Source: a virus
Taxonomy: Duplodnaviria; Caudoviricetes
Direction: 5' to 3' (one strand)
Length of the DNA: 61,718 nt
Virus record (IMG/VR): IMGVR_UViG_3300021180_000012
Location: 1 to 61,718 of that record
Shown: piece by piece, positions 15,300 through 35,116 of the stretch
Position numbering within the stretch: position 1 is the stretch's first letter
Layout: every line of letters starts with the position of its first letter
Notes under the pieces: model-generated
Database searches by the model: none
What the model was told of the DNA's origin: nothing
The model's input: the letters and a program-made list of their open reading frames with translations, nothing else
Translations under genes and position numbers: made by a program

Positions 15300-17417
15300 C
15301 TATCTCCTCATTCGTCGGACCATGCGAACCTTGAGCGTCTTGCGCTCTCTGGAAAGAGATCTAACTACGCCGTTTTCTCGGGTTAAGCCAGCCTCTCCCC
15401 ACAATTCGCGTAGGTGATTGGATATGTAGTAGCGATTGACAGGTCTGCCAGGGCCTGTGACAACCCCCTTGTCGACCTCAACACGTATAGCTCCTAGCTC
15501 TCGAAGGTCATCTACCTGGTCTCGCAGTGTGTTCTTAGCTAGGTTACAGTCCGCACTAAGCTCGTCCATAGTTTGACCTGGGTTATCAGACAATGAGGCT
15601 ATGGCTTCGAGATTGAAACCAACGCAGGTGTCGATGGCAATCCTTGCAAGTATCCGGTATTCGTCATCACCTATGGACGCCGGTGTGTTAACAAGCCCTA
15701 AGCCCATGAGCAGTTTGGTAAACTGGGCTGCAAGGCGAGTAGCCACCTCGTGTTGCGGTCGGTACAGCAACTTCCGTTCGCCGCGTGGATCTCGCTCGAC
15801 GCTAGCACGAAGCATAGCCACGAGTTCTGCAAGAGCGATAACCCGCTCCACCGTCCATTCGTCGAGTTGAGGTATGGCGTCCTCGTTTACTGCCACATCA
15901 AGGAAGGACTTCGCGGCCTCCGTTAACTCAGCAGCTATCTCTACTTCCTTGCCGACGTTTCGGATCGATGCACGTATCTGGTCCTTGTGTCTTGCGGCCA
16001 CACCCTTTACGATGTGCATCATGAGGAACCTTTCACCCAGAGAAGCAGAACGCTCTCCGTAGATCTGTTGGGTGACACCGGTTATCATGTTGAACACGCT
16101 CTCGTACTGTCTGAGAACACCGTTGCCGAACTCCTTAGCTGCGTTGCCGTCGTAGGCATCTCGCAGTACGCCTAGAAGTTCGTCCTTGTGCACTCGCGGC
16201 ATCGAGAGGATTGTGGTGAAGTCCTTGACCGCCAAGATCTTGTGATGAAGCTTTGGCAAGAGACTGGGGTCCTCGCCACCGCCCTTCACAAACCCTGAGA
16301 TCAACGAGTGCGGCGTAAGCGTTGACCGCATTATAACGTTGAGGCACTTCATAACAGAGGATATGAGTAACGTTTTGCCGCCACCGGGAGGTGCTACCAG
16401 ATGCATCCACAGCGGCGGTCCTGGTATCCTCACGGAGAGCACGACGGCGCATATGACCCTCAACGCGTCCTCAAGATCCTGCGTCATGTGTATATGCTTG
16501 CGATAGACTGCGAGCACGTCAGACCACTTGGGCCTCAGCGATGACGTTATAGGTATCCGGCTTTCCTTCTCCTTCTTCTGCTCATCTCGCTCATCGGGAG
16601 ATAGATACACATCTACGAGGTCATCAATCTCTGCAAACGTGCAGTCTTTTGTTACAAGGTCGCGAACGTCAGTACCTTCCGGTAGCTCCGTGGGCCATGC
16701 CAGGTGATAGACCTTCTTAGCCCGTTCCTTGATCTTGTAGTAGAGCCGTTCCTTGCCCTTCTCACCGGCTGTGTCGTGATCGTAGCACATGACAACATCA
16801 CGACCATCGATGAAGTCAAGCCACGCATCCTTGAAGATAGTACCCGGCGTACCGAGAACCATTCCTTCTTGGGTCTCTTTCTCTATGAGCCACCGGAGAG
16901 CTATGCAGTCCCAACCACCCTCCACGATATACACACGGTCGTCTGCGTGTCCTTTCTGGGAAGTGAAGTATTCAACGCCGAAAAGTTGTGCGTCGATCGT
17001 CGGCAGACCTTTTAGCTTGTCGCCAATCCGGTACATGTAGAGGTTGATGATCGCTCCCCGTGAATTGTACACAGGCATTGCGAACCTCTGACCATCGTAC
17101 ACGATACCAGCTTCCTTGAGGATGTCAGGTGGTAGCTGCCGGTCGTTAGCAAGGGATATGAACTCCTGCTGGTAGCTGTCCTGTTCCTCAAGGTATCTGG
17201 CATACCAGAGCTTCATGTACGAGTACACGTTACCCTTCTTGCCACATGACTTGCAGTCCCATTGGCCGGTGTCGATGTTTGCGTACAGGTGGTTCGGTTT
17301 AAAGCAGAATGGACAGGCCCCGTACGCCTCACGTCCTGTCATCCTGCGTTCGTCATAGTCAAACCCGAGTTCTACTAAGGGTCGTAGCTTCTCGGGTGCT
17401 TGTTGTTTTGCTGCCAT
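15300..17417 (-). CDS. Primase-helicase: Zn finger + TOPRIM + AAA+/MCM-like NTPase + winged helix
   Basis: CPFC...CKSC; VEGGWD and YDHD (TOPRIM); APPGGGKT Walker A; KDFTT; LRDAYDG; ERF arginine finger. Confidence 0.9.
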   Translation of the reverse strand: MAAKQQAPEKLRPLVELGFDYDERRMTGREAYGACPFCFKPNHLYANIDTGQWDCKSCGKKGNVYSYMKLWYARYLEEQDSYQQEFISLANDRQLPPDILKEAGIVYDGQRFAMPVYNSRGAIINLYMYRIGDKLKGLPTIDAQLFGVEYFTSQKGHADDRVYIVEGGWDCIALRWLIEKETQEGMVLGTPGTIFKDAWLDFIDGRDVVMCYDHDTAGEKGKERLYYKIKERAKKVYHLAWPTELPEGTDVRDLVTKDCTFAEIDDLVDVYLSPDERDEQKKEKESRIPITSSLRPKWSDVLAVYRKHIHMTQDLEDALRVICAVVLSVRIPGPPLWMHLVAPPGGGKTLLISSVMKCLNVIMRSTLTPHSLISGFVKGGGEDPSLLPKLHHKILAVKDFTTILSMPRVHKDELLGVLRDAYDGNAAKEFGNGVLRQYESVFNMITGVTQQIYGERSASLGERFLMMHIVKGVAARHKDQIRASIRNVGKEVEIAAELTEAAKSFLDVAVNEDAIPQLDEWTVERVIALAELVAMLRASVERDPRGERKLLYRPQHEVATRLAAQFTKLLMGLGLVNTPASIGDDEYRILARIAIDTCVGFNLEAIASLSDNPGQTMDELSADCNLAKNTLRDQVDDLRELGAIRVEVDKGVVTGPGRPVNRYYISNHLRELWGEAGLTRENGVVRSLSRERKTLKVRMVRRMRR

Positions 17418-17446
17418 AATTTATCAGCCCCTGATAGCTTACTCCC

Positions 17447-18007
17447 CTACTCAAAAAGCAATATGTTGAACACGGATTGGAGATAGTAGTACACAGGCAC
17501 TTCAAGCCACTTCTTACCGTTCCCTGCTATGTTCAACACCTCGATACCATTCGAGACTATCCAGTAGGCGACTTCGTAGGGATCGATCTGCTTCTCCCAA
17601 TTGCCGCCCCCTGCATACCACTCGTTCTCCATGAAGATATCGAGATGAGGTTTTTTGTAGTGTCTGATAGCTGCCAGTGTGCAGTATTCGCCAGGAGTGT
17701 TGAAGTCGACACATAGACGGATCGTAGCGTCTGCGGCTTGAACATTCCTGTGTGTGCGGGTACGGTAGTCTGGGCAATCGTCCCGCATCTGGTACATCCA
17801 CGCGTATCCTGGTTTCTTCCCTCGTTGGGTAAGAAAGCCTGTGGGCATATGACCGCCGGTCTTGAAACCCATTTCCTTAGCGATTGCAACACCGGCAATA
17901 TCTGCCCCTACTTGCCCTCCCGAGATAACCTTACGCAACGTCGTAGGGTTTGGCACAGGGGGCGTCAGGATACGTCTTTGTTGGTATCCTTTGACTATTA
18001 CTCCCAT
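17447..18007 (-). CDS. SLOG-superfamily (MoCo-carrier/YpsA-like) protein
   Basis: KVISGGQVGAD, RTxxNV..ADAT, VLNIAGN. Confidence 0.85.
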   Translation of the reverse strand: MGVIVKGYQQRRILTPPVPNPTTLRKVISGGQVGADIAGVAIAKEMGFKTGGHMPTGFLTQRGKKPGYAWMYQMRDDCPDYRTRTHRNVQAADATIRLCVDFNTPGEYCTLAAIRHYKKPHLDIFMENEWYAGGGNWEKQIDPYEVAYWIVSNGIEVLNIAGNGKKWLEVPVYYYLQSVFNILLFE

Positions 18008-18015
18008 GCCATCCC

Positions 18016-18252
18016 CTATAGTTTCCGTTTAGCTTGACTGATGATCTCGGTTGCTGCGTGCTCGATATCGGCGTACTGTACTAAGGCACCCTCTTCTTCG
18101 TCGGACACCGTGTCTTTCTCAACACCGACACCGGGAGGAACACAGCGTCTGTGAGCGAAGTCATCACCATCGTCCATCTTGACGATTACACAATCCTCAA
18201 CGTCGTCTGTATCTTTGATCTTCTTTTTACAGAAGCGGCAAGTCTCAGTCAT
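18016..18252 (-). CDS. Small Zn-finger-like protein
   Basis: CRFC...HRRC; AGGAGG RBS. Confidence 0.7.
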   Translation of the reverse strand: MTETCRFCKKKIKDTDDVEDCVIVKMDDGDDFAHRRCVPPGVGVEKDTVSDEEEGALVQYADIEHAATEIISQAKRKL

Positions 18253-18262
18253 TGTTATCCTC

Positions 18263-20809
18263 CTATGCAGCTAACGCGTATTTACCGGGTTTCCATTTTT
18301 CTTCTTCTACACCCCATCGGTGCTTAGTCACTGTGCACTCGACGGGCATAGGAACACCAACCCGACCCTCCGTATCCTCCATACGGGCGATGATCGATTG
18401 GATGATATTGTCTGTTAGGTGCTTCTCTCTAATCTCGATCTTGAGTTCGTCATGGATCGTGATAATGAGATGGGCATCACAGTTCTTTAGCCGGGACAGG
18501 AAGGCATCAACCTTTACCAGCGCATTCTTCATCATGTCAGCGGCTGACCCCTGCACCATGTAGCTAACGGCTCGATATCGGAACTGTGGATCTACGCAGA
18601 GCTTGCGACCATACAGGTTTATGATGTACCGATCGCGGCCACCCTTCTTGCCTAGCCTGTCCATGAACTCCTTCATCTCAGGCATTGAGGCATTGTACTC
18701 TTCGTCAAACTCGCGTGTTTCGTCGAGCGTACAGTACAACAGATGGGTATAGCTCTCGGGACCACCCCCGAAGATCTTAGCGTATGTGATGTGCTTGCAA
18801 CGTTGTCGGCTACTCTCTTTACCCAGAGAAGCCTCAGCCGCTACTATGCTGTAGCCGTGCTTTGCAATCCAGTCCTGCGCAATATCGTAGACTGTGCTGT
18901 CGCTAGGCGAATGGCGAAGCGCCTTGACCTTGCTCCAACCTATCTCGTTCCAGTAGTCCTTGACGGCATCGTTCGCCGGGTCCCTGAACAGGTCTAGCGC
19001 CTGTACAACAGCCTTAGCGGTGTTCTTGTTGAGCTTGCCGCCCCATGCCTTGTCTGCCATAGCCTTGAACGGGTCAGCGCCCGTGCTGATGGCTTCCAGC
19101 ATGACCGGTACTTGCGCAAGGAATGCGAAGATCCTGACCTCTTGTTGCGAGTAGTCGAAACCCAACCACACGTAACCAGGTCGAGGTCCAAAGACCTTAG
19201 TGGAGCTATAAGTGGCTGATAGGCTTTTCTTGCCGCCAGCCGAGACTTGTTGAAGGTTGGGGTCGTTGCAAGAGAACCGGCCTGTCTTAGTTCCGCATTG
19301 GTTGAGGCCCGGATGGATGACCCAACAGTCCCTGACTATTAGGTCAGGCTTCATCAAACCTTCGAACTTATCGAAGAACAGCCCCTTCGTATGCTTTGCG
19401 GCCCTATACCCGGCAAGTTCCTGTACGAACGGCTCGTACATCAGGTCTCGCAGGGTATCTTTGTCGGCGGTCAGTTTCTCGCCTTTGCCAACACCCTTGC
19501 GCTTGAACTGATGCGGAATGCCGAGACCACCCTCACCCTTTGGTAAGTACAGCACACGCATTAGCTGAGGAGATGACGACGGATTGAACGGCGGCGGTTT
19601 CCATTCGATCTTTCGTGGGCGCTTAGTCTCCGGTGGTGCCATCTTCTCTGGGGGTAGATGTAACAAACCATGTTCTTCGATAATCGACTGCATGTTGGCG
19701 AGATGGCTGTGCGGTCCCTCGTGATCCTTTGGTTTGGCACAGCCCATGACTTCGCATAGCTCGGGGTTGTCATGGAAGTACCCCATAGCCTCTAAGCAGT
19801 TCTGCGTCTCGATGCGGTTCTCGTCGGGGAAGGCACGCATACCGCGTTCTTCCATCTTGTTGACGATAGGCCATATGCTGCGCATCTCGAAGTCGTACTT
19901 CTCACGAAGGTAGTCATCGTCTGACATCACATCATGGTAGAACAGGTGCAGTCCCATTGTACGGAACGTATCAAACCGGCAGTACCGCTTGCAGCCTTCG
20001 AGCCACAGTGTGTTAGGCTCCTGCTCTTGCTCAAGGTCTAGCTTTGCGAAGTATGCAGGTAGCCAGTAGTCCGTTTTGGGTTCCTCGGATGAGAGCATCA
20101 GAGGCATGTTGTTCTTGATCGCTCGAACGTTGTAGCTCTTTAGTCGCCGTCTCGCAGACACTACGGCCTCTTGCAACTGCTTCTCATCAATGTCATCAAT
20201 ATCGAGGATGCGCTTGCTCAGAGGCTTTAAGCCGTAGTCGAGTTCCAACGTGTTGCAGACGCGAGCCTGGAAAAGCGTATCATGAATGCGACCGCCAGCA
20301 AGCTTGACCAGGAACTCCACGAAGATGCCAACCTTTGCCAGCATCCGGCAGTCGAACTTGGAGTTGTGGAAGATTGCTTGTATGCCTGGGGTAGAAAGAA
20401 CTGAGATGATATACTCAACGTCTGCGGGGTTAGGTGTTACCTCTCGGGTGAACGGATTGACTTCCCATGCACAGTACCAGGTGTGACCCTCTTCGTCGCA
20501 CATAGAGACTGCGAATGGTTTATCGACACACATAACCCCGTCAACGTCGTGTGCGCCCCACACATCAACGCCAGTGGTCTCGGTGTCGATCGCTACTATC
20601 TTGCCGGGTTTGAATTGATCTCGCGGTAGCTGAAACCCCGGCGGTTCTGTCTCAGGTCGCGGTGTAGCTATGGCTTCGTCTAAAGAGCGCAAAAGCTCCT
20701 CTTCCCAGTCCGGTTCCTCTTCCAGACGTTTAAGGCGCTCATCTCTTGTAATCATCCTGCGCACGCTAGCAGGGTTTACCATCCTACGTACGCGAGTTTT
20801 TATCTTCAT
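18263..20809 (-). CDS. polA: DNA polymerase family A with 3'-5' exonuclease
   Basis: AIDTETTG, HNSKFD, YCRFD exonuclease motifs; TGRFS, DYSQQE, VQGSAAD, IHDE polymerase motifs. Confidence 0.95.
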   Translation of the reverse strand: MKIKTRVRRMVNPASVRRMITRDERLKRLEEEPDWEEELLRSLDEAIATPRPETEPPGFQLPRDQFKPGKIVAIDTETTGVDVWGAHDVDGVMCVDKPFAVSMCDEEGHTWYCAWEVNPFTREVTPNPADVEYIISVLSTPGIQAIFHNSKFDCRMLAKVGIFVEFLVKLAGGRIHDTLFQARVCNTLELDYGLKPLSKRILDIDDIDEKQLQEAVVSARRRLKSYNVRAIKNNMPLMLSSEEPKTDYWLPAYFAKLDLEQEQEPNTLWLEGCKRYCRFDTFRTMGLHLFYHDVMSDDDYLREKYDFEMRSIWPIVNKMEERGMRAFPDENRIETQNCLEAMGYFHDNPELCEVMGCAKPKDHEGPHSHLANMQSIIEEHGLLHLPPEKMAPPETKRPRKIEWKPPPFNPSSSPQLMRVLYLPKGEGGLGIPHQFKRKGVGKGEKLTADKDTLRDLMYEPFVQELAGYRAAKHTKGLFFDKFEGLMKPDLIVRDCWVIHPGLNQCGTKTGRFSCNDPNLQQVSAGGKKSLSATYSSTKVFGPRPGYVWLGFDYSQQEVRIFAFLAQVPVMLEAISTGADPFKAMADKAWGGKLNKNTAKAVVQALDLFRDPANDAVKDYWNEIGWSKVKALRHSPSDSTVYDIAQDWIAKHGYSIVAAEASLGKESSRQRCKHITYAKIFGGGPESYTHLLYCTLDETREFDEEYNASMPEMKEFMDRLGKKGGRDRYIINLYGRKLCVDPQFRYRAVSYMVQGSAADMMKNALVKVDAFLSRLKNCDAHLIITIHDELKIEIREKHLTDNIIQSIIARMEDTEGRVGVPMPVECTVTKHRWGVEEEKWKPGKYALAA

Positions 20810-23138: not shown

Positions 23139-23597
23139 CTAATTCTCATCAGCCTCTTCGGGGTCTAGTAGCTCTAACTTGCGCAGGAAAGCTTCGGCTC
23201 TGGGTTCGTCACCCTCAAGCTCTCCGAGGACAGCACGGGCGAACTGTCCAACAGACCAAAACGGTATGGTGCTCGCGACATGCCGACGAAGGATTGACAT
23301 CTCGTCAGCATCAAACGTCGTCAGGGTCTGTGAACCCTCCTGCTTCTCTGGGATAAGAGACACAGCTAGATGAGGGTAACGCAGATCCAGTTGGTGATGT
23401 CGCTCGCCGTCGTCGCCGTCCATGACCACGTAGAACTCGCTGCCACTAACAGGGTTCGGGTTCTGCCCAGGTTCGAACTCCCGTAGCTCACCTTGCACTG
23501 GTCGACCAAAGTTTATCGAGTGTCCTTTGACTTGCTTGCCGACCCAGAGCTTGAGAGTAGCCGGATCGTTACTCTTCGCGATGTCTGCGATTTCCAT
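23139..23597 (-). CDS. Hypothetical protein
   Basis: GAGG RBS. Confidence 0.75.
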   Translation of the reverse strand: MEIADIAKSNDPATLKLWVGKQVKGHSINFGRPVQGELREFEPGQNPNPVSGSEFYVVMDGDDGERHHQLDLRYPHLAVSLIPEKQEGSQTLTTFDADEMSILRRHVASTIPFWSVGQFARAVLGELEGDEPRAEAFLRKLELLDPEEADEN

Positions 23598-23676: not shown

Positions 23677-25077
23677 TTAGGGTTTGCGAAGCTGGTCGAA
23701 CGGTACCTCGCGGGACACGCGGCCCACCATGACCGTCGCGATCGAGGTGTCGGCGTTCAGGGACTGCACGGTACCGCGAAGATCCTCGGACGGTTTCTTC
23801 GGGTTCGCGAAGATCACTTCCTCACCGACGTTCACCTCGACATCGACAAGGACCTCGGAGAAGGCTACAGTGTAGACCTTCTTACCTACCTTGACTTCGA
23901 GGCTTTCACCCTCGTTGTCGATGCTCTCGCAGATGCCGGTGTATTCCTTGCCGTTCTGCTCGAAGGTCACTTCGTCGCCAATGTTGATGGTGATGCCGCC
24001 GCTCTCAGCGGCTGCGTCCTCGCCGGTCTTGGTGGCGTCGTCGAAGGCAACGGTGTAGCTCTTGCCGCCACAATCGACGCTGAGTTCCTGCTCGGCGGCG
24101 TCGACCTCGGTAACGGTGCCGGTGCGCTCCTTGCTGCCGACCTTCCAGGTGATTTCGTCACCCACGCTAAAAGGTGCGTCGTCCGGTGCTTCCTCACCTT
24201 CCTTCTTGAGATCGGAGAGGCTGACAGCGTACAGCTTCTTGCCGACCTTGACCTGGGCCTCGTCGCCGTCGATGCTGTCGATGGTACCGGCATACGTCTT
24301 GCCGCCCTGTTCGAACTCGACATCATCGCCTTCGGAGAAGTCGCTGCCCCCGGCGTCGTCCGGGTCCTCGTTCTTCGCAACCGCCTCGTAGGGAACCGTG
24401 TAGGTTTTCTTGCCTACAGTGACTGAGACCTCGCTCTCGGTCTCGTCCACGCTGTCGACGATGCCGACCATCTCCTTCGAACCCACAGTGATTGTGACCT
24501 CGTCGCCCTCGGCGCATGGAGCCGGTGGAGTTTCGGTCTTGGGTTTCGCCGCCGCGCCAGCTTTCGGTTTGGATGCCGTGGTACTCTTGGCGCTGCCGCC
24601 CTTCGCGAGTTCGGCGGGGAGCTTGTAGCCCTCCTCGCGCTCCTGCAAGTAGACGTTCTGGAAGCCGGTCTGCGTGTTGGTCTTGAGCTTGATGCGCCAA
24701 ACCTGCTTCTGCTTCACGGCGTCCTCAAACAGCTTCTCAAGCTGTGTGGGATCGAGTTCGGAGGCGTCATTCCCTGTGAGCGCTTCGAGGCGCTTGATGG
24801 TCTTGCTGCTGATGTCGCCCTCGTAGAACAGACCCTGCCACTCGTACTTGGTCTCGTTCACGCGGTCGCCTTCGAGGATGTACCAGCCGTGGAGCGAACC
24901 CCACGCCGGGGGGTTGTCCTTCGTACCCTGCGACATCTTGACTTCGACGCCGTTGTACAAGGCGACGTATTCGCCGTCATCCCAATTGCTTTCGCCGGAG
25001 GAGTGGGCCGTCTCGACGGACGAACCCCAGTTTTTCTTCGCGTTCTTCAACAATGCGTTGAGATCGTTAGCTGCCAT
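23677..25077 (-). CDS. DUF669-like ssDNA-binding protein with five tandem acidic SH3/Tudor-like repeats
   Basis: N-terminal DGEY.A...E.K.S...ILEG...FQNV pattern near AAA_24; repeats GD[ED]V...G...S[IV]D...V.VGKK.Y.V. Confidence 0.7.
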   Translation of the reverse strand: MAANDLNALLKNAKKNWGSSVETAHSSGESNWDDGEYVALYNGVEVKMSQGTKDNPPAWGSLHGWYILEGDRVNETKYEWQGLFYEGDISSKTIKRLEALTGNDASELDPTQLEKLFEDAVKQKQVWRIKLKTNTQTGFQNVYLQEREEGYKLPAELAKGGSAKSTTASKPKAGAAAKPKTETPPAPCAEGDEVTITVGSKEMVGIVDSVDETESEVSVTVGKKTYTVPYEAVAKNEDPDDAGGSDFSEGDDVEFEQGGKTYAGTIDSIDGDEAQVKVGKKLYAVSLSDLKKEGEEAPDDAPFSVGDEITWKVGSKERTGTVTEVDAAEQELSVDCGGKSYTVAFDDATKTGEDAAAESGGITINIGDEVTFEQNGKEYTGICESIDNEGESLEVKVGKKVYTVAFSEVLVDVEVNVGEEVIFANPKKPSEDLRGTVQSLNADTSIATVMVGRVSREVPFDQLRKP

Positions 25078-25209: not shown

Positions 25210-25692
25210 TTACGAACGATCCAGCGTAGCCGCCGCGTTGGGTTGATCGGTGTTCGCTGTGTCGTCGTGAACATGGAGGATGACGGAGTATCGGTGAGCC
25301 GTCAGTGGATCGGGTTGAAGTTGACCAGAGGCCGTGTAACTGTGACCGCCGACCGCGTAGTTGCCGGTCATGACGCCAGCGTTTGTGATGCCGCCGACGA
25401 GATCGTGACCGATGCCGGATTGCCCGTTGAAGTCGATGGTGCCAGCGGTCATTGCGCCGGATGCGTTGATGGAGAAGTGGACATCGCCGCCGTGTGCGGT
25501 CGTATCGGCTGAGAACGTTCCGTTGTAGTTGCCCTGGTAGCTCGATGTTGTACCACCGCCGCCACCGCCCGGTGAGGAGGACCCGCCCCCGCCACCACCG
25601 CAACCCGTAACCGAGGCGAGAACCGCGAACACTGCTGCTGCCAGCATTCCCTTACCGTAGGGGCTGCCACTGATTGATGTGAATACCTTCAT
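25210..25692 (-). CDS. Lipoprotein
   Basis: Start MKVFTS (GAAGGG RBS); lipobox VTG-C followed by a poly-Gly/Ser linker and a beta domain. Confidence 0.8.
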   Translation of the reverse strand: MKVFTSISGSPYGKGMLAAAVFAVLASVTGCGGGGGGSSSPGGGGGGTTSSYQGNYNGTFSADTTAHGGDVHFSINASGAMTAGTIDFNGQSGIGHDLVGGITNAGVMTGNYAVGGHSYTASGQLQPDPLTAHRYSVILHVHDDTANTDQPNAAATLDRS

Positions 25693-26229: not shown

Positions 26230-27165
26230 TTAGCGACGGCCCTTGACGGTGAACTTCGCCTTCACTTCGGAAAGCTCAGCCTTGCGTCGTAGCTCGCCGT
26301 CGTCCTTTTGTTTGTTTTCGTAGGCGTAGACGATGTTAGCGTATGCTTCTTCCGCACTATCGCCCATAGGGATTGATATGACTGGATCGCCGCCGGGTGT
26401 GTTGAAGTTGTTCTTCATTCGGCACTTCGCGTCAACGTTTTCGTCACCGCGAATTACCAGCTTACGTTCACCGCCGACATAACAGTAGCACGCGGTAATA
26501 TCGCAGAAGCCGTTCAGGAAGCGTCGCCCCTTCTCCTCGATGGATGCGATAAGCTTCATGTTCTTAACCCCTGTAGCCTTCTGCATTTCCTTTTCCAGAG
26601 TGTGGGAGATAAACACCACACCCCGGCCTGTTGCAGTCAGCCGCATTATCTGGTCCTTAAACTCTGCGAGCCGCCGATTGTTGCCCTTGTTGAAACCGAG
26701 AGACCCGCTGTTGATATCGTCAGGATCATCGTCGGCTTGCTCGATCACGAACTTACCGGCGAGATCCCATGCGAAGTCTGCGGTGTCAAAGGTGATGGTC
26801 TCGTACAGATCAGAGGCTACGATCTGGTCAATGACCTTCACGAACTGTTTCTTCCAACTCGTGAACTGCCCTTCCCGTGGAAGCCTAACAATCTCTAAGA
26901 AGTCACCACCTGGTTCGAAGAATAGCGAAAGGTTATCGGGGAACATTGAAGCAAGCTCCGTTTTCCCTATGCCTGGTTCGCCGTGGATGAAAAGCTTCGC
27001 AGATCGGAGATTTCCGCGTGGCTTCTCAGCCTTTGTAGGAAGAGATAGGTCGATCTCATTTGGTCTGACTATCGATCGTTTCGCCACCGTAGGGGCGCTA
27101 ACGACTGACCGCGTAACTGGTTTCGCGGCTGACCTACCTCCGATCCTCGCTGTTATTGTTGCCAT
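26230..27165 (-). CDS. AAA_24 / Sak4-like ATPase (single-strand annealing recombinase); likely start MATITAR
   Basis: HGEPGIGKT Walker A, TITFDT Walker B, VFISH, AKCR; GGAAGG RBS. Confidence 0.85.
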   Translation of the reverse strand: MATITARIGGRSAAKPVTRSVVSAPTVAKRSIVRPNEIDLSLPTKAEKPRGNLRSAKLFIHGEPGIGKTELASMFPDNLSLFFEPGGDFLEIVRLPREGQFTSWKKQFVKVIDQIVASDLYETITFDTADFAWDLAGKFVIEQADDDPDDINSGSLGFNKGNNRRLAEFKDQIMRLTATGRGVVFISHTLEKEMQKATGVKNMKLIASIEEKGRRFLNGFCDITACYCYVGGERKLVIRGDENVDAKCRMKNNFNTPGGDPVISIPMGDSAEEAYANIVYAYENKQKDDGELRRKAELSEVKAKFTVKGRR

Positions 27166-27420: not shown

Positions 27421-27639
27421 CTAGCGAGAGCAGAGACAGGTGTAGCAGATGCCCTCGCTTTCATGCATTCTATCAGCCTCTGAGTACGTATCCATTTCTA
27501 GGCCACATAACGTCCGGTTTGGGTCCTCGACTTTGAACACATGCCATTCGTCCCAACCCGCAGGCTTTGCGAACCTCTTGCCTATAGGTGCGATGAGGAG
27601 TTCGTCGGCCTCATGCAGCGCATCGTTTTCGCGTGGCAT
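27421..27639 (-). CDS. Small Zn-binding protein
   Basis: WH...TLCG...CxxC; GAGGGAGG RBS. Confidence 0.7.
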   Translation of the reverse strand: MPRENDALHEADELLIAPIGKRFAKPAGWDEWHVFKVEDPNRTLCGLEMDTYSEADRMHESEGICYTCLCSR

Positions 27640-28763
27640 TAGTCGTCACCTCCCTCATCGTTTACCAGTTCGGGGAATACGTGCAGACGTTTGGTGTAGA
27701 GCTTGTGGGCGTCGTGCGAGCCACCGCAGATCGGCAGGAACTCACAGGGTTTGTTCCACTTCATACACGCACCGGAGTTGCGGTACGATACATAGCCCCC
27801 GAGAGACCATTCGTACATCCGCTCAATCTGGTAGTCGAGATCACGGTCTCTGTACGTCTGTATCTCAGCCTGTGACACGGAGATCTGGTTGCGACAGAAG
27901 TATTCGTCGCCCTTTTCCTCCATGTGCTTGTCGACACGCTCTAGGTACTGAGCTAGGCTTTCGGGCTTCTTGTAGTAAGTACCTGTGAACTTTTGCCCAG
28001 GTCGCTTGATGAGGTTGTAGTTGAAGCCCTCGGGCCACTCACCATAGTTGTGCAGGACACAGAGGCTGTAGATCATCATCTGCAAGTCGAATGCCATCTT
28101 CTCCGCTAGGTAGAAGTCCTCGATCTGCGATTTGGTCTTATGGTCTGTGATCCATAGCTTACCGTTGATGCGCTCGATCAAGTCGATCTTACACCATATG
28201 AGTATCGTCACCCCATTGCGCAGTTTGTAGGGGAACGACAGTACCTTCTCAACGGCTATGATCTGTCTCTTGGTATCGCGCACAGCCCACCGCTTGAAGT
28301 ATCGTTTGATGACAACCGCCGAAAGACCGGCTGTCACCTCCATAGCCTGTTCCTCGGCAGGGTCGAGATCCTTAGACTTCGCGGCTTTGGCATCGAGCGC
28401 CTTGTTTGCCAGCAGTGACCAATACTTAATCTCTTGCCCAGAGAGAACAGTCTTTGAGAGTTCCCCTACTCTCTGGGAGTAAGTCTTATCAAGTACGTCA
28501 TGGAAGTAGCTGCCAAACTCAAGAGGTCGATCATGGCTTGCTCCGTTCCGCTCCAACCCCTGCATGAGCCGTAGCTCGGCTTTCTTCGGGCAGAGGTTGA
28601 ACAGCCCTAGACCGGACTGCGTTATGCCGTCGCGCTCCATCATCCAAAAATGCTCATCGGAGATCCGGGTTGGTCCCTTCGAAGGTTTTAGCTTCGATAT
28701 GCTGTCAAGGGCTGTCATTACGGCTTGATTAGGCTTTGTACCAGCCCGTACACGTATCTTCAT
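27639..28763 (-). CDS. PD-(D/E)XK (RecB/Cas4-like) exonuclease
   Basis: FGSYFH, KIDL, TDHKT, QMMIY, C-terminal Cys cluster. Confidence 0.9.
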   Translation of the reverse strand: MKIRVRAGTKPNQAVMTALDSISKLKPSKGPTRISDEHFWMMERDGITQSGLGLFNLCPKKAELRLMQGLERNGASHDRPLEFGSYFHDVLDKTYSQRVGELSKTVLSGQEIKYWSLLANKALDAKAAKSKDLDPAEEQAMEVTAGLSAVVIKRYFKRWAVRDTKRQIIAVEKVLSFPYKLRNGVTILIWCKIDLIERINGKLWITDHKTKSQIEDFYLAEKMAFDLQMMIYSLCVLHNYGEWPEGFNYNLIKRPGQKFTGTYYKKPESLAQYLERVDKHMEEKGDEYFCRNQISVSQAEIQTYRDRDLDYQIERMYEWSLGGYVSYRNSGACMKWNKPCEFLPICGGSHDAHKLYTKRLHVFPELVNDEGGDD

Positions 28764-28824: not shown

Positions 28825-29553
28825 CTAGTAAAGAGCTATTGATTGGTCGTACCTAAAGTTCTCCCAATACTGAGCGAATAGCCTGTCGATGCGCCGTGCG
28901 TAGTCCATGTGTTGTGCAGAACCTTCGCCTGTGCGCAGAACGAACGACGGGTGTTTTATTGTCTCATGGTGCACAACCATGCTGCCGAGTTCCGGCATTA
29001 CAGCCACCGGCCAAAAGCTATCAGCTACTCTTCCCACACTTACCACAGTGTTCGGGTTCAACACCTTAATAGTGTCTGTTAGTCTGGGTAGGCAGTTGTA
29101 GACCTCCGATGTCGCCGGTTCCCGATTGCCCGGTGCCAACGGTTTGCTCTTGTATGGTCGGCAAGCAAGCAGGTTGAGCAGAGCTATCGTGATACGCCCA
29201 TAGCCTCTGCAAGCCCAACAAGGCTCGCTAACTGTGCCGTCCTCTAGCCCCATGCCATCGCAGAACGGACAGGCATTATGGGGCGCGGCGTCTATCAGGT
29301 CTCGCAGAAGTTTCCCGGCAGGACCACAGAACGGGTAGCCTAACGTGTCCTCAGTCTCGCCGGGACCTTCGCCTATCATCACCATGTCAACATGCGAGCC
29401 GCCAAACGCAAGCACTGAGCGTGGCACAGTGTCTATGAACACATGATTGCGTACATGAGCGCCCATAACGCACTTTGTACACCCGCGCCATTGTGCATTG
29501 ATAGTTGGGATGGTCACAGGGTTTGAGGCTCGCTTGATCCTTATGGGGATCAT
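28825..29553 (-). CDS. Uracil-DNA glycosylase family 4 with an inserted CxxCxGxG Zn finger; start MIPIRIK
   Basis: CxxC, IGEGPG, PFCGPAG, CRP...NREP, HPS; GGAGG RBS and ATGA overlap. Confidence 0.88.
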   Translation of the reverse strand: MIPIRIKRASNPVTIPTINAQWRGCTKCVMGAHVRNHVFIDTVPRSVLAFGGSHVDMVMIGEGPGETEDTLGYPFCGPAGKLLRDLIDAAPHNACPFCDGMGLEDGTVSEPCWACRGYGRITIALLNLLACRPYKSKPLAPGNREPATSEVYNCLPRLTDTIKVLNPNTVVSVGRVADSFWPVAVMPELGSMVVHHETIKHPSFVLRTGEGSAQHMDYARRIDRLFAQYWENFRYDQSIALY

Positions 29554-29786: not shown

Positions 29787-29961
29787 CAGCTTTCTCCATA
29801 TTGTGCTGCCAAGTGTATAGCTGAGTTAGGATACGCTTCGCAGCCGGTGATACGTTCGCTTTGGTTATGGGACCGTGGACGTTAATTGCGTCCCTTAAAG
29901 CGCCTACGATAGCTCGCTCTAGCGATCCCCGATCCGGGCCTTTCTTGTGGTAGTTTGGCAT
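29671..29961 (-). CDS. Hypothetical protein
   Basis: GGGAG RBS. Confidence 0.6.
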   Translation of the reverse strand: MPNYHKKGPDRGSLERAIVGALRDAINVHGPITKANVSPAAKRILTQLYTWQHNMEKADDSKEKASYSQTGPRGSGNEVGQTVPYTRRKFRNGNSG

Positions 29962-30532
29962 TGGCCTTAAACACTCCCTTGATATGCAAACCGATACCCA
30001 CAGCGTCTATGGCATGTGACGAGATAACCGCCTCACCTCCTTTAACACGAACAAGCTTCGGGTCATCTTGTCGACCCTCAGCCTTTAATCCAAGTCGATC
30101 GGCTATCCGGTGGGCAACAACCATCTTACCCATGCCTGTGCCTTTCCACCCGCCAGCCCCGTTGATACGTACAGTAGTGACAGGCACTTGCCACATATAG
30201 AACATGCCAGCTATACGCCCCACAAGGTATGATAGCTTAACGAGATCGCTGTCGTCGCCATCTTTGCCAGTAGCGCATGTCAGACCTTTCTCGTTTTGAA
30301 AGAACGTCGGCAGTTCGATATAAGCCGCTGCTAGCATTCGCACATCGCATATCTCGGAGTAGTTAAGCATGTGCTCCATAGTGATGCAGATGTTCTCGGC
30401 TCGCTGCTGCCAGGTTCCCTTACCTGACCGGATGACCCCCGTTCTCTCTGGGATAAGACTATCATCATTAAACACCGCCCAACCGGTGCCACCGCTGCCC
30501 ATAGATAGGCCGGGGTCCACACATAGTATCAT
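29882..30532 (-). CDS. RuvC-like Holliday junction resolvase
   Basis: ILCVDPG...GWA, IE, WK, HAIDAVGIG. Confidence 0.8.
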   Translation of the reverse strand: MILCVDPGLSMGSGGTGWAVFNDDSLIPERTGVIRSGKGTWQQRAENICITMEHMLNYSEICDVRMLAAAYIELPTFFQNEKGLTCATGKDGDDSDLVKLSYLVGRIAGMFYMWQVPVTTVRINGAGGWKGTGMGKMVVAHRIADRLGLKAEGRQDDPKLVRVKGGEAVISSHAIDAVGIGLHIKGVFKANAKLPQERPGSGIARASYRRRFKGRN

Positions 30533-30535
30533 CCT

Positions 30536-30712
30536 TTACCATCCTTGTTCGTAGTGCTCGTAGTACCGCATAGCCTCTTCTTTGTTGTGCTGGTCGCTCT
30601 TGCACTGTGCGTAGCCTTCGACAGCACCATCTTTAAAGCCCATGCGATAGCCAACGCCGCTAGTTACCGCACAGATGAGCACAATGCAGATTAGTATGAT
30701 GCGGTTTTGCAT
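30536..30712 (-). CDS. 58-aa membrane-anchored peptide (not in the ORF track)
   Basis: TAATG coupling; MQNRIILICIVLICAVTSGVGYRMGFKDG. Confidence 0.55.
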   Translation of the reverse strand: MQNRIILICIVLICAVTSGVGYRMGFKDGAVEGYAQCKSDQHNKEEAMRYYEHYEQGW

Positions 30713-32160
30713 TACACAGCCTTTCTTAGCCCTATCTTAGCACGGCGAGCCAAGAACCTCTCCTTGAACTTCGCCGCGAATAGTTTGCTGTCGAGGATCT
30801 TGTCTCCCACAGCGTCTATGGTGTCCTCGTCTGTTGTGTCCATAGCGGCTAGGAAGATGTACAACAATGCCGCCTTCTTGTCCGGGTGCTCTATGCGATC
30901 CATGAACTGCGCCATGTCTTTGCACGAGTGTATGATCGAGTACAGTATCATAGTATCAGAGATTGATAGGTCAATACCGAACTGAGCAACCTTGATCTGT
31001 ATTAGTATGACACGACCTGGGATCTGCGAGGTACGGAACCAGTTGAACTTGCGAACTCGGCTATCGCGGTTGTCCTCCCCTGTCACCATCTCGCAGACGA
31101 TACCAGCCTTGCGCAGAGCGCCATAGATAGCCTCGACCTCGGCATTGAACCTGAACCCGACAACCACCGGTTGCTCGGATAACTCACCCTTGAGTAAGCT
31201 TATGAGTTCTTTAGTCTTTGAGGCCCATCGGTACGTTGGCTTAGGGTCACAGCCCCCGGCAATCCTTGCACACCACGTACGCTGTACAATGAGATGGTCT
31301 GTCTCGATCTTCTCGAAGCCATCGCCATTGTTGACTACTGCTTCGAACTTATCCTCAGCCGTTGAGTACATCTTGGCTTGCTCAAGGCACATGCGGACGA
31401 ACCGAGTTTCCTTGATCTTCTTGTTGCCGAGACCGGCTTGATGGCGGGTGAGAACAAACGCTCTGCGATGCACGTAGTCTTTGATAGCCTCTTTCATTCC
31501 ACGCTTAGGTTGCCAGCCATTCCATCGAAGCTCGAAGTACCTAGCTCGGTACTCCCAGTACGAGTAGCATCCCATGAAGTGTCCGTCAAGGAACTGGAAT
31601 TGACAGAACAGGTCTAGCGGTCCCTCGGGGGCAGCAAGCCCGGTCAGGATAGCCCGGTGCTCGACATCGCGGAAACCCTTAGTACAAAGCTCAGTGATCT
31701 TCGCTTGCGGGTTCTTAATCGCTGTGCTCTCATCTAGACCAACGAAGTACCACGGCAAGAACGCCAGCCCCGGTGTCTCTCGAAGGCTATCATAGTTTAT
31801 AAGTACGTACGTTATGCCATCCTTGCCGAAAGCCTCATTGACTGTTAGCTCAGTACGCTTGTCGAACGACTTACCGTGTACTACGATGTACCGCTCACCC
31901 TCAAGCCGTAGTTCTTTCTCCCATGCTTCGAGAACGCTGATAGGGGCTACTATCAGACAGGGAAAAGGTCGGCCCCGAAAGGAGCCAACCTCTTTTTCGA
32001 TCCACCGGCGTAGCAGTCGAATGCTCGCCAGTGTCTTACCCAGTCTCATCTCCATCAGACACGCTACATGCTTTAGCAGTTCGCCGTAGGCTATGTAGCT
32101 GTCTTGATGCTTCATGTTCTGCCTATAGTGTCTGTGAACTGCACGCAGCTTGATCTTCAT
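30712..32160 (-). CDS. SNF2-family helicase
   Basis: MRLGKT, LINYD, LDEST, LTG, GIDL, QFMDRIEH. Confidence 0.9.
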   Translation of the reverse strand: MKIKLRAVHRHYRQNMKHQDSYIAYGELLKHVACLMEMRLGKTLASIRLLRRWIEKEVGSFRGRPFPCLIVAPISVLEAWEKELRLEGERYIVVHGKSFDKRTELTVNEAFGKDGITYVLINYDSLRETPGLAFLPWYFVGLDESTAIKNPQAKITELCTKGFRDVEHRAILTGLAAPEGPLDLFCQFQFLDGHFMGCYSYWEYRARYFELRWNGWQPKRGMKEAIKDYVHRRAFVLTRHQAGLGNKKIKETRFVRMCLEQAKMYSTAEDKFEAVVNNGDGFEKIETDHLIVQRTWCARIAGGCDPKPTYRWASKTKELISLLKGELSEQPVVVGFRFNAEVEAIYGALRKAGIVCEMVTGEDNRDSRVRKFNWFRTSQIPGRVILIQIKVAQFGIDLSISDTMILYSIIHSCKDMAQFMDRIEHPDKKAALLYIFLAAMDTTDEDTIDAVGDKILDSKLFAAKFKERFLARRAKIGLRKAV

Positions 32161-32417
32161 GACCTCACCGTCAACAGCATCCAGTTAGTGATGCCATAGT
32201 GAGCGGCCATAGTCTGTGCCAGCCACTCGGGACCGTACTCTGGGTTCTGCGGTGCATCCTTGCCGTACGACATGTCCCATGCCTTAGTAACATCGTTCGT
32301 GAACTTAGCAGGTTTAGCCGCTGGTCCTCTTCGACCCCTGCTAGAGTGAGGGTCAGGCTGGTATGACTGAGCTAAGAAAGCCTGAGAACCGTTCGCTATA
32401 ACAAGCATTACTATCAT
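32157..32417 (-). CDS. Hypothetical protein
   Basis: ATGA coupling at both ends. Confidence 0.65.
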   Translation of the reverse strand: MIVMLVIANGSQAFLAQSYQPDPHSSRGRRGPAAKPAKFTNDVTKAWDMSYGKDAPQNPEYGPEWLAQTMAAHYGITNWMLLTVRS

Positions 32418-32638
32418 AGTTGCTTCCTTCCGTTCGGGTACATCTCGCGGAACTGCCTCAAGGTAAAGTGACCACTAGCAGCCCTTGCGGGTTTCCATCT
32501 CTTAGCCTCGATCGAGGCTACGTACTGTTGGCCGGATGCACGCTGCACATACCGGACCATCGTAACACTAACCCTCAAGTTGTCAGCGTACTTGAAATTG
32601 ACAAGCTGTGTTAACGCGTCTGCATACTTGATAGCCAT
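32414..32638 (-). CDS. Hypothetical protein
   Basis: TAATG coupling. Confidence 0.65.
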   Translation of the reverse strand: MAIKYADALTQLVNFKYADNLRVSVTMVRYVQRASGQQYVASIEAKRWKPARAASGHFTLRQFREMYPNGRKQL

Positions 32639-33354
32639 TAGTAACCCTTGACCTCCTGACGCGCATAGAAGAGGTGACAGGCACAGTCAGACTTGCAGTA
32701 GCCTTGAACCCCTGTGATCGGACAGTACACACCATCCCAGACAGCTTCGCAGTTCATGCACTTGAACCAGCGGCTATCAGGATACTTAGGGTTTGAGGCC
32801 CCGCAAGTTGGGCAGACAGGTACGGGGCGTTCCTCCCAGATGTGCACCCACCTACCTTCATTGTAGACCTCTACTTCCAGAGAATGATCGAAGGCTGTGA
32901 CCTCGAAGTCTATCACGTCCATCATATGCTCTGTCAGCTTATTGTGCATCTCAACGCAAGAGCGTACAAACTCGTTCGCGTCAGTCCTTGTGAAGAAGTG
33001 AGCTAGCCCTTGCTCGGGCATCTCCGACATCGGATACCAGAAGCCCATGCCCAGACAATCGCCCTGGAAGATGCCGAACTCCTTGTGCCGTACCATGTAG
33101 CCGCCAGGGGCTGAGGGTTTGAATACCTCAGCTACCCTGAACCGGATATCACGCGGTCGGTGCTTTAGACACTCCTTGACGAAATCGGGCAGACAATCAA
33201 AGTCCGGTGTCAACCCACCGTCAGGGTCTGCTAATGCCATGACAGCAAACACGTGGTTATCCAGTAGCTTATCCACGAGGCTATCTAGCTCCTGGTCGTA
33301 GCTTGATGCGTGCCTTGACGGTTGTTCGGGTCGTCGAGTTCTTCTTATCAACAT
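32638..33354 (-). CDS. Hypothetical protein with C-terminal Zn ribbon
   Basis: CPTC...CMNC; AAGGA RBS. Confidence 0.75.
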   Translation of the reverse strand: MLIRRTRRPEQPSRHASSYDQELDSLVDKLLDNHVFAVMALADPDGGLTPDFDCLPDFVKECLKHRPRDIRFRVAEVFKPSAPGGYMVRHKEFGIFQGDCLGMGFWYPMSEMPEQGLAHFFTRTDANEFVRSCVEMHNKLTEHMMDVIDFEVTAFDHSLEVEVYNEGRWVHIWEERPVPVCPTCGASNPKYPDSRWFKCMNCEAVWDGVYCPITGVQGYCKSDCACHLFYARQEVKGY

Positions 33355-34231
33355 TGTCCTTGTCTCCCATGATTACCTGAGACCATGCAGCAAGGCCCGA
33401 CACCTCACCTGTACCGTCGCAGCGGTCGCACACGTCGCCGCTAGGCAGTACACATTCACCCTTGCACCGTCCACATACCACAGTGTTGCGGTCGTCCTTC
33501 TTCACTGCTCGAATGCGGACCCGCTTCTCTGGGAGTGATGATACACTGGTCGACTTCTCGCCAGGTTCCTTACCGGTGCCTTCACAATGGCTGCACACAT
33601 CGCTAGCTTTGTCATCGTAGCCACTGCCAAAGCAGATGGTACAGTCGTCGGTCGGGTTCGACTTGACAAGCTCTTTGATGCGGCTAACAGCCTCTAAGCC
33701 TTTTTTGCTTAGACGAAAACGGACTACGTAATCCCCTCTCTCCTTTTGGCGCTCCATGTAGCCCATGAAATGCAGGGCTGATAGCGCCGGATGATTGTCG
33801 ATGCTATGCTCGTATCGAAGGCCCTTTGAGAACACTTCTAGTGAAGCCTCAAGGGCTGTGAACCACCCGTTGCCGATCGACTTCCACGCGACCATGATGT
33901 CAGTCAGGTTCCGTTTGATAGCAGTCTCCGAGAAGTCAAACGAGACGTTGATCTGGTGTGATCGCTCAAGAGTACGAGGTAGCGCGGCGTCGATCTCAGG
34001 GAGTTCTACGTGCATGTGTGGGCCGGGGTGTCCGGTGGGGAGCAGACAGACATCGTACGGACGGCCTTTGCCATCCATGCCGCCATAGCCGCAGATCGGG
34101 CTATTCGGATCTCGTGGGCATGTCTGTATCGAGTGGCGTAGTGCAGCCCGAAACTCGGGCATGTCTACCTTCTTGACCTTTGGGGTCTCAGGCTTTGATG
34201 GCGGGGTTGCCGTCTTGACCCGGATTTTCAT
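33281..34231 (-). CDS. Hypothetical protein with DnaJ-type CxxCxGxG Zn fingers and a possible winged helix; start MKIRVK
   Basis: Four CxxCxG motifs; GGAG RBS and ATGA overlap at 34228-34231. Confidence 0.75.
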   Translation of the reverse strand: MKIRVKTATPPSKPETPKVKKVDMPEFRAALRHSIQTCPRDPNSPICGYGGMDGKGRPYDVCLLPTGHPGPHMHVELPEIDAALPRTLERSHQINVSFDFSETAIKRNLTDIMVAWKSIGNGWFTALEASLEVFSKGLRYEHSIDNHPALSALHFMGYMERQKERGDYVVRFRLSKKGLEAVSRIKELVKSNPTDDCTICFGSGYDDKASDVCSHCEGTGKEPGEKSTSVSSLPEKRVRIRAVKKDDRNTVVCGRCKGECVLPSGDVCDRCDGTGEVSGLAAWSQVIMGDKDNVDKKNSTTRTTVKARIKLRPGAR

Positions 34232-34464
34232 TGGGGTGCTCCGTTGCTTTGCAGTTCGGCTCTCAGTGTTTGTGCTTTGCCCTGCACCTTCAAAAAACAC
34301 GTAATCAAGAAGGTGAGCACAAAGGCTATGAAGATGACGTAGGCAATGATAGTTATGAGTTTGTGAGCACGTTTGTGCTTGCGCATGTTCTCAGTCTCTA
34401 CGCCAACCCAGGCATGACGAACTATGCCATTGTAGCGCCGTGGGTCTTTGTTAAGGTCGTTCAC
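34228..34464 (-). CDS. Small single-pass membrane protein
   Basis: LITIIAYVIFIAFVLTFLITCF. Confidence 0.7.
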   Translation of the reverse strand: MNDLNKDPRRYNGIVRHAWVGVETENMRKHKRAHKLITIIAYVIFIAFVLTFLITCFLKVQGKAQTLRAELQSNGAPQ

Positions 34465-34709
34465 TCCGTTACCTCTCTTTCGTAGACGGTGTTGTACACG
34501 TCGAGAGCGCGGATAGCGCGGCTGTTCTCCATTGTGGCCTTGCGGTCACAATCCTTGCAACGTAGTTCAATGAGCTTGCGCTCGTGCTGTGAATGAGCTT
34601 CGACCCCGTTGCTAAGGTCGATCTCAGTTGAGTAGGTCACAAGGAATGACCACTTCGCAGACCCACAGTTACGACAGGTCAGCGGATCAGTCTCTGCTGT
34701 GTCAGGCAT
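34461..34709 (-). CDS. Zn-ribbon protein
   Basis: CRNC...CKDC. Confidence 0.7.
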   Translation of the reverse strand: MPDTAETDPLTCRNCGSAKWSFLVTYSTEIDLSNGVEAHSQHERKLIELRCKDCDRKATMENSRAIRALDVYNTVYEREVTE

Positions 34710-34711
34710 TG

Positions 34712-35116
34712 CTAACCCTTTCTAAATTGCATCCGAATGGTAACTTTCGTGGTGACAGGGACTGCGAAGTAGGCCCTTATTATGCACCTCGGTCTTGCGT
34801 CGAAGAGTGTGTCGATGTAGGCTTTCGCAGCGTCTAAGCCTCTACGATGGGCAACCGGTTCCCCGGCTCCGTCGTATATGTGGCAGGAATGACCGGCATC
34901 CTTTACAAGCTCCTCGTAGACCCTGATATGGTAGCCCTTGTAGTCCTCTGCCTTGTACGTACGTCGCACAACCAACGGCCTGTTGGACGCACGCAGATCT
35001 GCATAGACCTTCTGAGCTATCTTCGTCTTGGGTCCGTGTGACGGCTTGCCTAGCTGACCGTACAACTTCAACATATCAGACGCTGATACCACCTTAGTAG
35101 CCACTCGAACCTCCAT
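34712..35116 (-). CDS. Basic hypothetical protein, first gene of the middle operon
   Basis: Directly downstream of the promoter at 35142-35171. Confidence 0.75.
   Translation of the reverse strand: MEVRVATKVVSASDMLKLYGQLGKPSHGPKTKIAQKVYADLRASNRPLVVRRTYKAEDYKGYHIRVYEELVKDAGHSCHIYDGAGEPVAHRRGLDAAKAYIDTLFDARPRCIIRAYFAVPVTTKVTIRMQFRKG

Follow-up and report, generated by a model that had tools for sequence, protein, structure and literature searches.

A short basic N-terminal tag on unrelated replication and repair enzymes in a clade of uncultivated tailed phages

The replication and repair module of the tailed phage in IMG/VR record IMGVR_UViG_3300021180_000012 encodes a set of unrelated enzymes that begin with the same kind of short peptide, in which basic and aliphatic residues alternate. 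The record is referred to below as the window: all 61,718 bases of it were analysed, and it is a single contig representing the complete genome of an uncultivated phage, nearly all genes of which lie on the minus strand. The tags exist, are enriched and conserved, are selected as protein and lie outside the folded domains. They probably serve to hold their enzymes either on DNA or on the phage protein that coats it; taken by itself, a tether to a polyanion, DNA, we regard as plausible, if short of probable.

Occurrence of the tag in the window

A sequence-only reading of this module had drawn attention to a basic strand-like tag at the termini of its enzymes. Every peptide quoted there was found at the gene named, and the enzyme names given to the module proteins were borne out by Pfam. 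We defined a strict motif, (ATG/GTG/TTG)-K-I-[KR]-x-[KR], post hoc and searched for it as a regular expression over the six frames of the window. There are exactly four matches, each of them the start of a frame of 316-848 codons: PolA (MKIKTR, 20809), the PD-(D/E)XK nuclease (MKIRVR, 28763), the SNF2 helicase (MKIKLR, 32160) and a Zn-finger protein (MKIRVK, 34231). These genes, the looser members and the C-terminal peptides discussed below are as follows.

18263..20809, minus strand: family-A DNA polymerase (PolA; Pfam), 848 aa; tag MKIKTRVRR at 20783..20809, where the public call P0118 starts; Pfam exonuclease domain from residue 71
27639..28763, minus strand: PD-(D/E)XK nuclease (Pfam), 374 aa; tag MKIRVRA at 28743..28763; Pfam domain from residue 48
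30712..32160, minus strand: SNF2 helicase (Pfam), 482 aa; tag MKIKLRA at 32140..32160, where the public call P0010 starts; C-terminus RAKIGLRKAV at 30712..30744, in a long predicted alpha-helix and not a strand tag
33281..34231, minus strand: Zn-finger protein, 316 aa; tag MKIRVKT at 34211..34231, where a single other in-frame start (GTG 34300) comes before it and GGAG lies 8 nucleotides (nt) upstream
28825..29553, minus strand: UDG (Pfam); looser member MIPIRIKR at 29530..29553, with GGAGG upstream; Pfam UDG domain from residue 51
32638..33354, minus strand: 238-aa protein; MLIRRTRR at 33331..33354; no Pfam or PHROG family found
26230..27165, minus strand: AAA_24/Sak4-like protein (Pfam); MATITARIGGR at 27133..27165, followed by a basic linker of about 40 aa; C-terminal basic tail KAKFTVKGRR at 26230..26262
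15300..17417, minus strand: Toprim primase-helicase (Pfam); C-terminal tail TLKVRMVRRMRR at 15300..15338, with a net charge of +6 in the last 10 residues

All starts are predictions, and their placement was checked with a start caller that is blind to the peptide and uses only the Shine-Dalgarno match and codon identity (ATG). It selects the tag start in all four strict-motif genes, as well as MATITARI (27165, Sak4-like) and MIPIRIKR (29553, UDG). In the gene 34712..35116 it favours GTG 35104 (MATKVV) over MEVRVAT, and the latter, at 35116, is doubtful. It should be mentioned that the caller misplaces some other starts, for example that of the window's primase.

Public gene calls begin at the tag for SNF2 (P0010, 482 aa) and PolA (P0118, 848 aa). 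The call for the nuclease (P0001, 334 aa) begins 40 codons downstream and removes the tag, while the upstream start is backed by homologues that keep both the upstream frame and the tag. Since automatic calls can cut the tag off in this way, the feature is easily missed in databases. Two other calls, P0002 and P0121, are apparently over-extended upstream of an internal Met-tag.

Dinucleotide-preserving shuffles of the window contain 0.077 strict matches on average and two at most, and none of 300 reaches four. From position-specific residue frequencies, 0.049 strict-motif proteins are expected among 66 (Poisson P(>=4) = 2e-7, post hoc); these frequencies are the window's own and are inflated by the four tagged proteins themselves. 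Because this figure is post hoc, we added an unsupervised test, in which BLOSUM62 scores over residues 2-7 were summed for the six highest-scoring protein pairs and compared with 2000 column shuffles. Four related genomes (G001-G004) were included; these are the records taken whole among 13 IMG/VR loci with syntenic modules that were found via the nuclease. Excess similarity was detected in the window (P = 0.001), G003 (P = 0.0005) and G001 (P = 0.024), and none in G002 (P = 0.37) or G004 (P = 0.90). A class of mutually similar N-termini exists; one exact required sequence lies beyond the reach of this test. A reduced-alphabet test of the largest identical class gave P = 0.63 in the window, where small-residue classes dominate, and is hence uninformative.

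We then compared the replication and structural modules, whose borders were set from homology and synteny. The gene set comprised main-strand open reading frames (ORFs) of at least 60 aa, and an ORF was dropped if it overlapped a longer one by more than 30% or 150 nt. Proteins with at least three K/R in residues 2-10 were distributed as follows.

Window: replication 8/26, structural 0/24
G001: replication 5/17, structural 3/24
G002: replication 9/23, structural 0/28
G003: replication 8/13, structural 2/28
G004: replication 3/14, structural 5/27

Pooled over the five genomes, 33/93 replication proteins carry such an N-terminus versus 10/131 structural proteins (Fisher p = 2e-7, a value that overstates independence, the genomes being related). 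When the longest start is taken for all genes, the pooled counts are 29/94 versus 11/132 (p = 1.4e-5). The charge is confined to the very beginning of the replication proteins: over the opening pair of five-residue bins the net charge per residue amounts to 0.15 and 0.13, reaches about zero by residue 20 and is -0.007 in the protein body. Structural proteins begin at 0.05 and then stay near zero. These data agree with the earlier observation that unrelated enzymes of DNA metabolism carry the tags and that head and tail proteins largely lack them.

It is highly improbable that the tags are look-alikes picked from a generic bias, Lys-rich N-termini being common in bacteria and phages. Such a bias would be in line with the post hoc origin of the motif, with the weakness of the looser members MEVRVAT and MATITARI (one of them on the doubtful start), with the reduced-alphabet result and with the lack of excess pair similarity in G002 and G004. 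However, the shuffles, the pair test in the window and the contrast between modules all speak against it, as does the conservation of the tag in orthologues of four enzyme families, described below.

The overlap filter dropped the window's portal ORF from the gene set. This likely portal ORF (56892..58547, minus strand) has its longest start at 58547, with GGAG 9 nt upstream, and shares 185 nt with the 3' end of the 628-aa gene that lies upstream of it and is the likely terminase; the arrangement in G001 is alike. From the longest start, the portal N-terminus is basic, with the sequence MAVAQRSRRIQARRRVIV in the window and MATVKIKS in G001.

Conservation, selection and position of the tag

In the 13 related loci the strict string marks no real gene, its sole matches being three copies of a 6-codon ORF, which makes the exact MKI[KR]x[KR] string specific to the window genome. 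It is this genome's version of a looser consensus. A tag of similar kind, approximately M-[KR]-[IVF]-[KR]-[IVL]-[KR], has been retained by the nuclease, SNF2, PolA and Sak4 orthologues, followed by linkers of variable length. N-termini in three of the related genomes are the following.

G001: nuclease MATVKVKK; SNF2 MKLVKVKYKK; another protein MKLKATKTIK
G002: SNF2 MKFVYNPRVK; UDG MAFKVRHK; PolA MRFLLKK; nuclease MKPVKFKPK; Sak4 MVTVKRSVVK; Zn-finger orthologue MKFIRKTNITNSKPTP (MKFIRK)
G003: UDG MGKRKKKAY; PolA MGKRRRSKK; primase MATKKRKAR; Sak4 MAAVKKIEKKK; two further proteins MAAKKRKKD and MAKKLRKKK

Among the nuclease homologues other than the window protein, 5/7 have at least two K/R in the first eight residues, one of them at an internal Met. 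Their tags include MKIRTKIKK (the internal Met), MKIKKKP and MATVKVKK, and the linker from the tag to the conserved core ERDGITQS differs greatly in length. The counts for the next three families were made by eye. SNF2 has at least 108 homologues. About 20 of the 35 aligned SNF2 sequences, window included, have a similar start (e.g., MRIRCKIRK, MIVRCKRKI, MIRVRVKK, MPRIRKRS); in 11, the first residue either is the Met of the R-x-L-M-P-H-Q motif or lies beyond it, and three carry an extension that is not basic. PolA is tagged in 6/11 homologues (MKIRIKKTR, MKIRKATK, MQVKVKR, MKVKLL, MRVKLRKK and an internal MKTRQFR), namely in all five at 55-61% identity, but in only 1/6 of the more distant ones. 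A basic N-terminal segment is present in 8/8 orthologues of Sak4. In a cultured but distant phage of Brevundimonas, the module of which is similar, the N-termini at annotated starts are rich in Lys/Arg and lack the alternating pattern.

In each enzyme family the tag spans a wide clade at 40-70% identity. As these orthologue series show that each family inherited its tag, the tags are ancient and clade-wide and not recent acquisitions. The earlier proposal that they were convergently acquired therefore lacks support as it was worded, and only ancient acquisition events would fit. Nor are the tags peculiar to this genome, as the relatives carry tags of the same kind.

Codons diverge after ATG-AAR-ATH in the four tagged genes, where 6/7 Arg codons are CGN; the four starts have no nucleotide similarity past the first 9 nt, and K and R swap both between tags and between orthologues. 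The use of different codons had been noted before, and these synonymous and K/R codon changes show that selection acts at the protein level. Since the Arg codons are mostly of the GC-rich CGN type and K and R are interchangeable, charge, and not A/U-rich mRNA, is the target of selection. An RNA or DNA element at the starts was considered and rejected, nothing being common to them beyond ATGAARATH. This string itself is enriched in the window (7 observed versus 1.84 expected), with tagged starts accounting for 4/7 occurrences.

The tags lie outside the catalytic folds, as had been suggested. Pfam domains of the tagged enzymes begin at residues 37-71, and the linkers that follow the tags are variable. 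AlphaFold modelled SNF2 from a 35-sequence alignment with a mean pLDDT of 88; the value is under 50 for residues 2-6 and averages 90 over residues 11-20. A role of the tag as an integral strand of the fold was rejected for SNF2 from this model, and for the nuclease and PolA from their variable linkers. Taken with the orthologues, these data describe the tag as a short, conserved motif that lies in a disordered stretch and not in the folded domains.

The same pattern had been claimed for C-termini, and this part of the claim is for the most part weak. The peptides are present, and the basic C-terminal tail of Sak4 is kept in 8/8 orthologues. However, the net charge of the last 10 residues distinguishes replication from structural proteins significantly in the window only (1.00 versus -0.54, p = 0.015); the contrast is marginal in G003 (p = 0.051) and absent in G001 (p = 0.34), G002 (p = 0.47) and G004 (p = 0.6). 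The end of SNF2 sits in a predicted helix (residues 458-481, AlphaFold) and shows an F..R(R) pattern family-wide in the alignment. In the primase, the basic tail is C-terminal in the window and N-terminal in G003 (MATKKRKAR), G004 (MDQRRRRQVPVKRK) and G001 (MVYIKKD).

A signal of another kind, either a translation-initiation or early-elongation "ramp" in codons 2-6 or an N-terminal degron through which ClpXP or another AAA+ protease of the host would keep replication proteins short-lived, seems improbable to us. The strict place directly after Met1 would suit such signals, and so would the enrichment of ATGAARATH. ClpX has three classes of N-terminal degrons, one of which is carried by lambda O (PMC12723719, in excerpt); like the tags, it is a brief signal placed at the very N-terminus of a protein of phage replication. 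Yet the CGN codons and the K/R interchange point to charge as the selected property, and nucleotide similarity ends after the first 9 nt. Structural genes, for which the highest expression is expected, have no tag in the window (0/24). A signal restricted to the N-terminus would leave both the basic C-terminal tail of Sak4 and the primase tail at the other end inexplicable, and a degron is at odds with the C-terminal and KKRK variants.

Possible partners: DNA and the SSB-like protein P0009

As the function of the tags we favour a tether to DNA, though we put its likelihood slightly below that of its being wrong. The proposed arm would consist of a short cationic peptide directly after Met1, approximately M-[KR]-[IVF]-[KR]-[IVL]-[KR], or a KKRK-type string in more distant relatives, and a disordered linker that varies in length would connect it to the catalytic domain. 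It may act as a weak, sequence-independent DNA-binding or sliding arm; in an extended strand its basic side chains would share one face, and the free amine of the N-terminus would provide an additional charge. The effect of such a tether would be to keep the polymerase, the nuclease, the SNF2 translocase, the glycosylase, the annealase and further DNA enzymes concentrated on the DNA of the phage.

We infer DNA binding from several lines of evidence. Every tag carrier of known function acts on DNA (PolA, PD-(D/E)XK, SNF2, UDG, Sak4), and the likely portal, a DNA-handling protein outside the replisome, is also basic at its N-terminus in the window and G001. Positive charge is confined to the first 10-20 or so residues of the replication proteins. 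Sak4 is basic at both ends in 8/8 orthologues, and a primase tail at either terminus is what would be expected of a position-tolerant electrostatic arm. The Lys/Arg-rich N-termini of the distant cultured phage with a similar module also favour the tether.

Basic disordered tails on DNA enzymes are already known. Base-excision-repair glycosylases and nucleases of mammals have disordered, positively charged N- or C-terminal tails outside the minimal catalytic fold; these are tens of residues long, eukaryotic and without a shared hexapeptide, while the phage tags form a short shared handle. DNA-sliding peptides are known as well: the molecular sleds, i.e. adenovirus pVIc and basic peptides of the nuclear localisation signal type, bind and slide on DNA (PMC4740752 and PMC4797294, both in excerpt). 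The tagged proteins have three to five K/R in residues 2-10, which amounts to a short peptide with a core of roughly three or four Lys/Arg, as in the sleds. According to these excerpts, sleds likewise have three to five basic residues, an enzyme cargo, a sequence-independent affinity for DNA (proposed here for the tags) and a terminal position that matters. The KKRK-type tags of relatives such as G003 resemble the KRRR core of these DNA-sliding peptides, which also favours the tether. In contrast, a sled is one diffusible peptide, whereas the phage tags are encoded at the N-termini of many enzymes and have alternating aliphatic residues in the closer clade.

Several features weigh against a purely electrostatic arm. 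The conserved aliphatic residues at positions 3 and 5 in the closer clade seem to exceed what electrostatics alone requires, and the strict start at residue 2, conserved in the same clade, would not be needed. The excess similarity of N-termini within genomes (window, G003, G001) hints at a shared specific reader, although in the pair test a general class of basic N-termini and a single specific sequence would look alike. Finally, three to five charges provide only a weak affinity.

A candidate for such a reader is encoded within the module by P0009, which resembles an SSB, a protein that binds single-stranded DNA.

23677..25077, minus strand: P0009, SSB-like protein of unusual architecture, with a DUF669-like N-domain, a basic linker and five acidic barrels
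24604..25077, minus strand: P0009 residues 1-158, DUF669-like SSB domain
23680..24522, minus strand: P0009 residues 186-466, five acidic Tudor/KOW-like beta-barrels with acidic linkers between them (AlphaFold model)

The N-domain is conserved in six syntenic homologues and resembles DUF669 clusters (Atlas features score 0.94, structure TM 0.67). Pfam DUF669 (PF05037) gave no match to P0009 itself at E <= 0.01 and matched 1/6 aligned homologues at 1.3e-6. The middle part is a disordered basic linker of Pro, Ala and Lys, and the protein as a whole is strongly acidic, with a net charge of -8.2 per 100 aa. Each barrel, of about 55 residues, is modelled as a five-stranded small beta-barrel, an assignment that extends to fold class only. 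Foldseek matches of the barrel array include SPT5 KOW arrays (E = 1e-10), SETDB1 Tudor (1e-6) and MBT repeats. Single barrels match Tudor, chromo and KOW domains in VIA-align at Z 7-9, a range that the tool calls common; matches at Z 8-9 have a root-mean-square deviation of 1.1-3.2 over 49-58 residues. The barrels occur only in the homologues of the window, G001 and G002, while G003, G004 and the locus L010 have the N-domain without them. A match to P0009 was found in 1/5 further fragmentary related records and covers mainly the N-domain.

The Sak4-like AAA_24 gene lies about 1.2 kb upstream of P0009 in the same module, an arrangement that is syntenic in relatives. A similar pair is Gp63-Gp64 of "Healer", a DUF669 SSB with a predicted OB fold and an AAA recombinase (PMC13687109, in excerpt); P0009 shares with it the DUF669-like N-domain, the Sak4-like gene nearby and an acidic C-terminal part. 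The tail of Gp63 is described in that excerpt as flexible, whereas P0009 has five folded Tudor/KOW-like barrels instead. We propose that P0009 is a DUF669-type SSB in which the acidic tail has turned into these barrels.

The tag could then be a short linear motif read by the acidic barrels, with one SSB on single-stranded DNA holding several tagged enzymes; we regard such docking as possible, if unlikely. It would account for the fixed N-terminal position and the conserved aliphatic residues, which go beyond the needs of electrostatics, and for the co-occurrence of the barrels. The DUF669-like N-domain and the acidity of P0009 agree with it, and basic histone tails are read by some members of the fold class to which the barrels belong, the matches including SETDB1 Tudor and MBT repeats complexed with histone peptides. 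The genomes with barrels, namely the window, G001 and G002, are also those with alternating aliphatic/basic tags; this is a comparison of three genomes versus three, fully confounded with phylogeny. Against docking, basic tags persist in relatives that have no barrels, the portal N-terminus is basic too, and the argument draws on fold class, the single-barrel matches falling in the "common" range. Complex predictions of P0009 residues 186-466 with nuclease residues 1-40 scored 0.09 and 0.02 versus a mark of 0.32 and count neither way.

The fuller version of this docking seems quite doubtful to us: the N-terminal amphipathic cationic strand of at least six non-homologous enzymes would be a targeting signal read by the P0009 barrels that replace the acidic tail, and the SSB would serve as a multivalent organiser or condensate scaffold. 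If true, it would be a charge-inverted counterpart, in a prokaryotic virus, of both histone-tail reading and SSB-tail hubs. The acidic C-terminal tail of T7 gp2.5 reportedly engages basic patches of T7 DNA polymerase and competes with DNA for basic sites, and for this reason the tether and the SSB hub are not mutually exclusive. Other acidic tails are that of T4 gp32, described with Dda (PMC11551737, in excerpt), and the DDDIPF tail of E. coli SSB, mentioned in the excerpt of PMC13687109. The likeness is that an acidic element of an SSB could engage the basic elements of several enzymes of replication and repair. The two differ in that the linear motif of the known systems is on the SSB and the folded basic patch on the partner, whereas in the phage the putative motif is on the partners and the folded acidic barrels are on the SSB.

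Direct binding to DNA is no worse an explanation of the data than an SSB partner. It fits better in two respects, the basic N-terminus of the portal and the KKRK tags in phages whose SSB is without barrels. The probability left beyond the four readings discussed here belongs to functions that we have not thought of.

No description of a terminal tag shared across phage replication proteins was found in the literature, most subscription journals being outside the coverage of the search. What is new is the systematic use of one kind of N-terminal handle by at least six unrelated enzymes in a clade of phages, next to an SSB whose barrel array is unusual. If the tags are tethers to DNA or to an SSB, one reusable handle of 6-8 residues serves a whole clade of uncultivated 60-kb phages in organising the enzymes of replication and repair. 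Proteins would then be brought to phage DNA by a rule that is both simple and portable, and the handle might be of use as a tag in engineering.

Relatives of the phage and neighbouring genes

The window phage is without a close cultured relative. Megablast of the 21-kb module gave no match to cultured phages, and the best tblastn match for PolA has 22.5% identity. A scan of viral contigs with PolA alone yielded zero confirmed relatives, and a metagenome scan with a narrower alignment gave nothing nearer than the relatives already found. With PHROGs, neither P0009 nor the 522-, 152-, 160-, 238- and 134-aa proteins could be assigned a function.

In Brevundimonas phage vB_BpoS-Strzyga (L041, ON529867.1; 62 kb), the module at 12765..20774 comprises PolA, an endonuclease-like protein, a P-loop NTPase, a 337-aa protein and a helicase. 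The 337-aa protein, which begins with MARRPSKKAAAKK, has a C-terminal region of mixed acidic and Lys-rich character and may be a P0009-like SSB.

The P0009 region is the GC-richest stretch of the window genome (0.59). Next to it, the gene 23139..23597 (minus strand) encodes an acidic 152-aa protein with a net charge of -8.6 per 100 aa, the C-terminus of which, ...LDPEEADEN, is similar to an SSB tip. Its resemblance to small barrels of the RimP-C/LSM type is weak (Atlas score 0.76, TM below 0.5), and it has no PHROGs family. On the other side, a lipoprotein-like ORF (25210..25692, minus strand) lies within the replication module; its sequence MKVFTSISGSPYGKGMLAAAVFAVLASVTGCGGGGG resembles a signal peptide with a lipobox.

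The Zn-finger protein (33281..34231) and UDG (28825..29553) each matched the DnaJ model of the CXXCXGXG zinc finger weakly and below threshold (E = 0.002 and E = 0.008, respectively); these matches are probably mere CxxC zinc ribbons. The window gene 17447..18007, which encodes a protein containing GGQVGADIAG, has two homologues in G002 (L003 2922 and 20470), and both copies may start in a tag-like manner, with MVNFKIKR and MNFKVSR.

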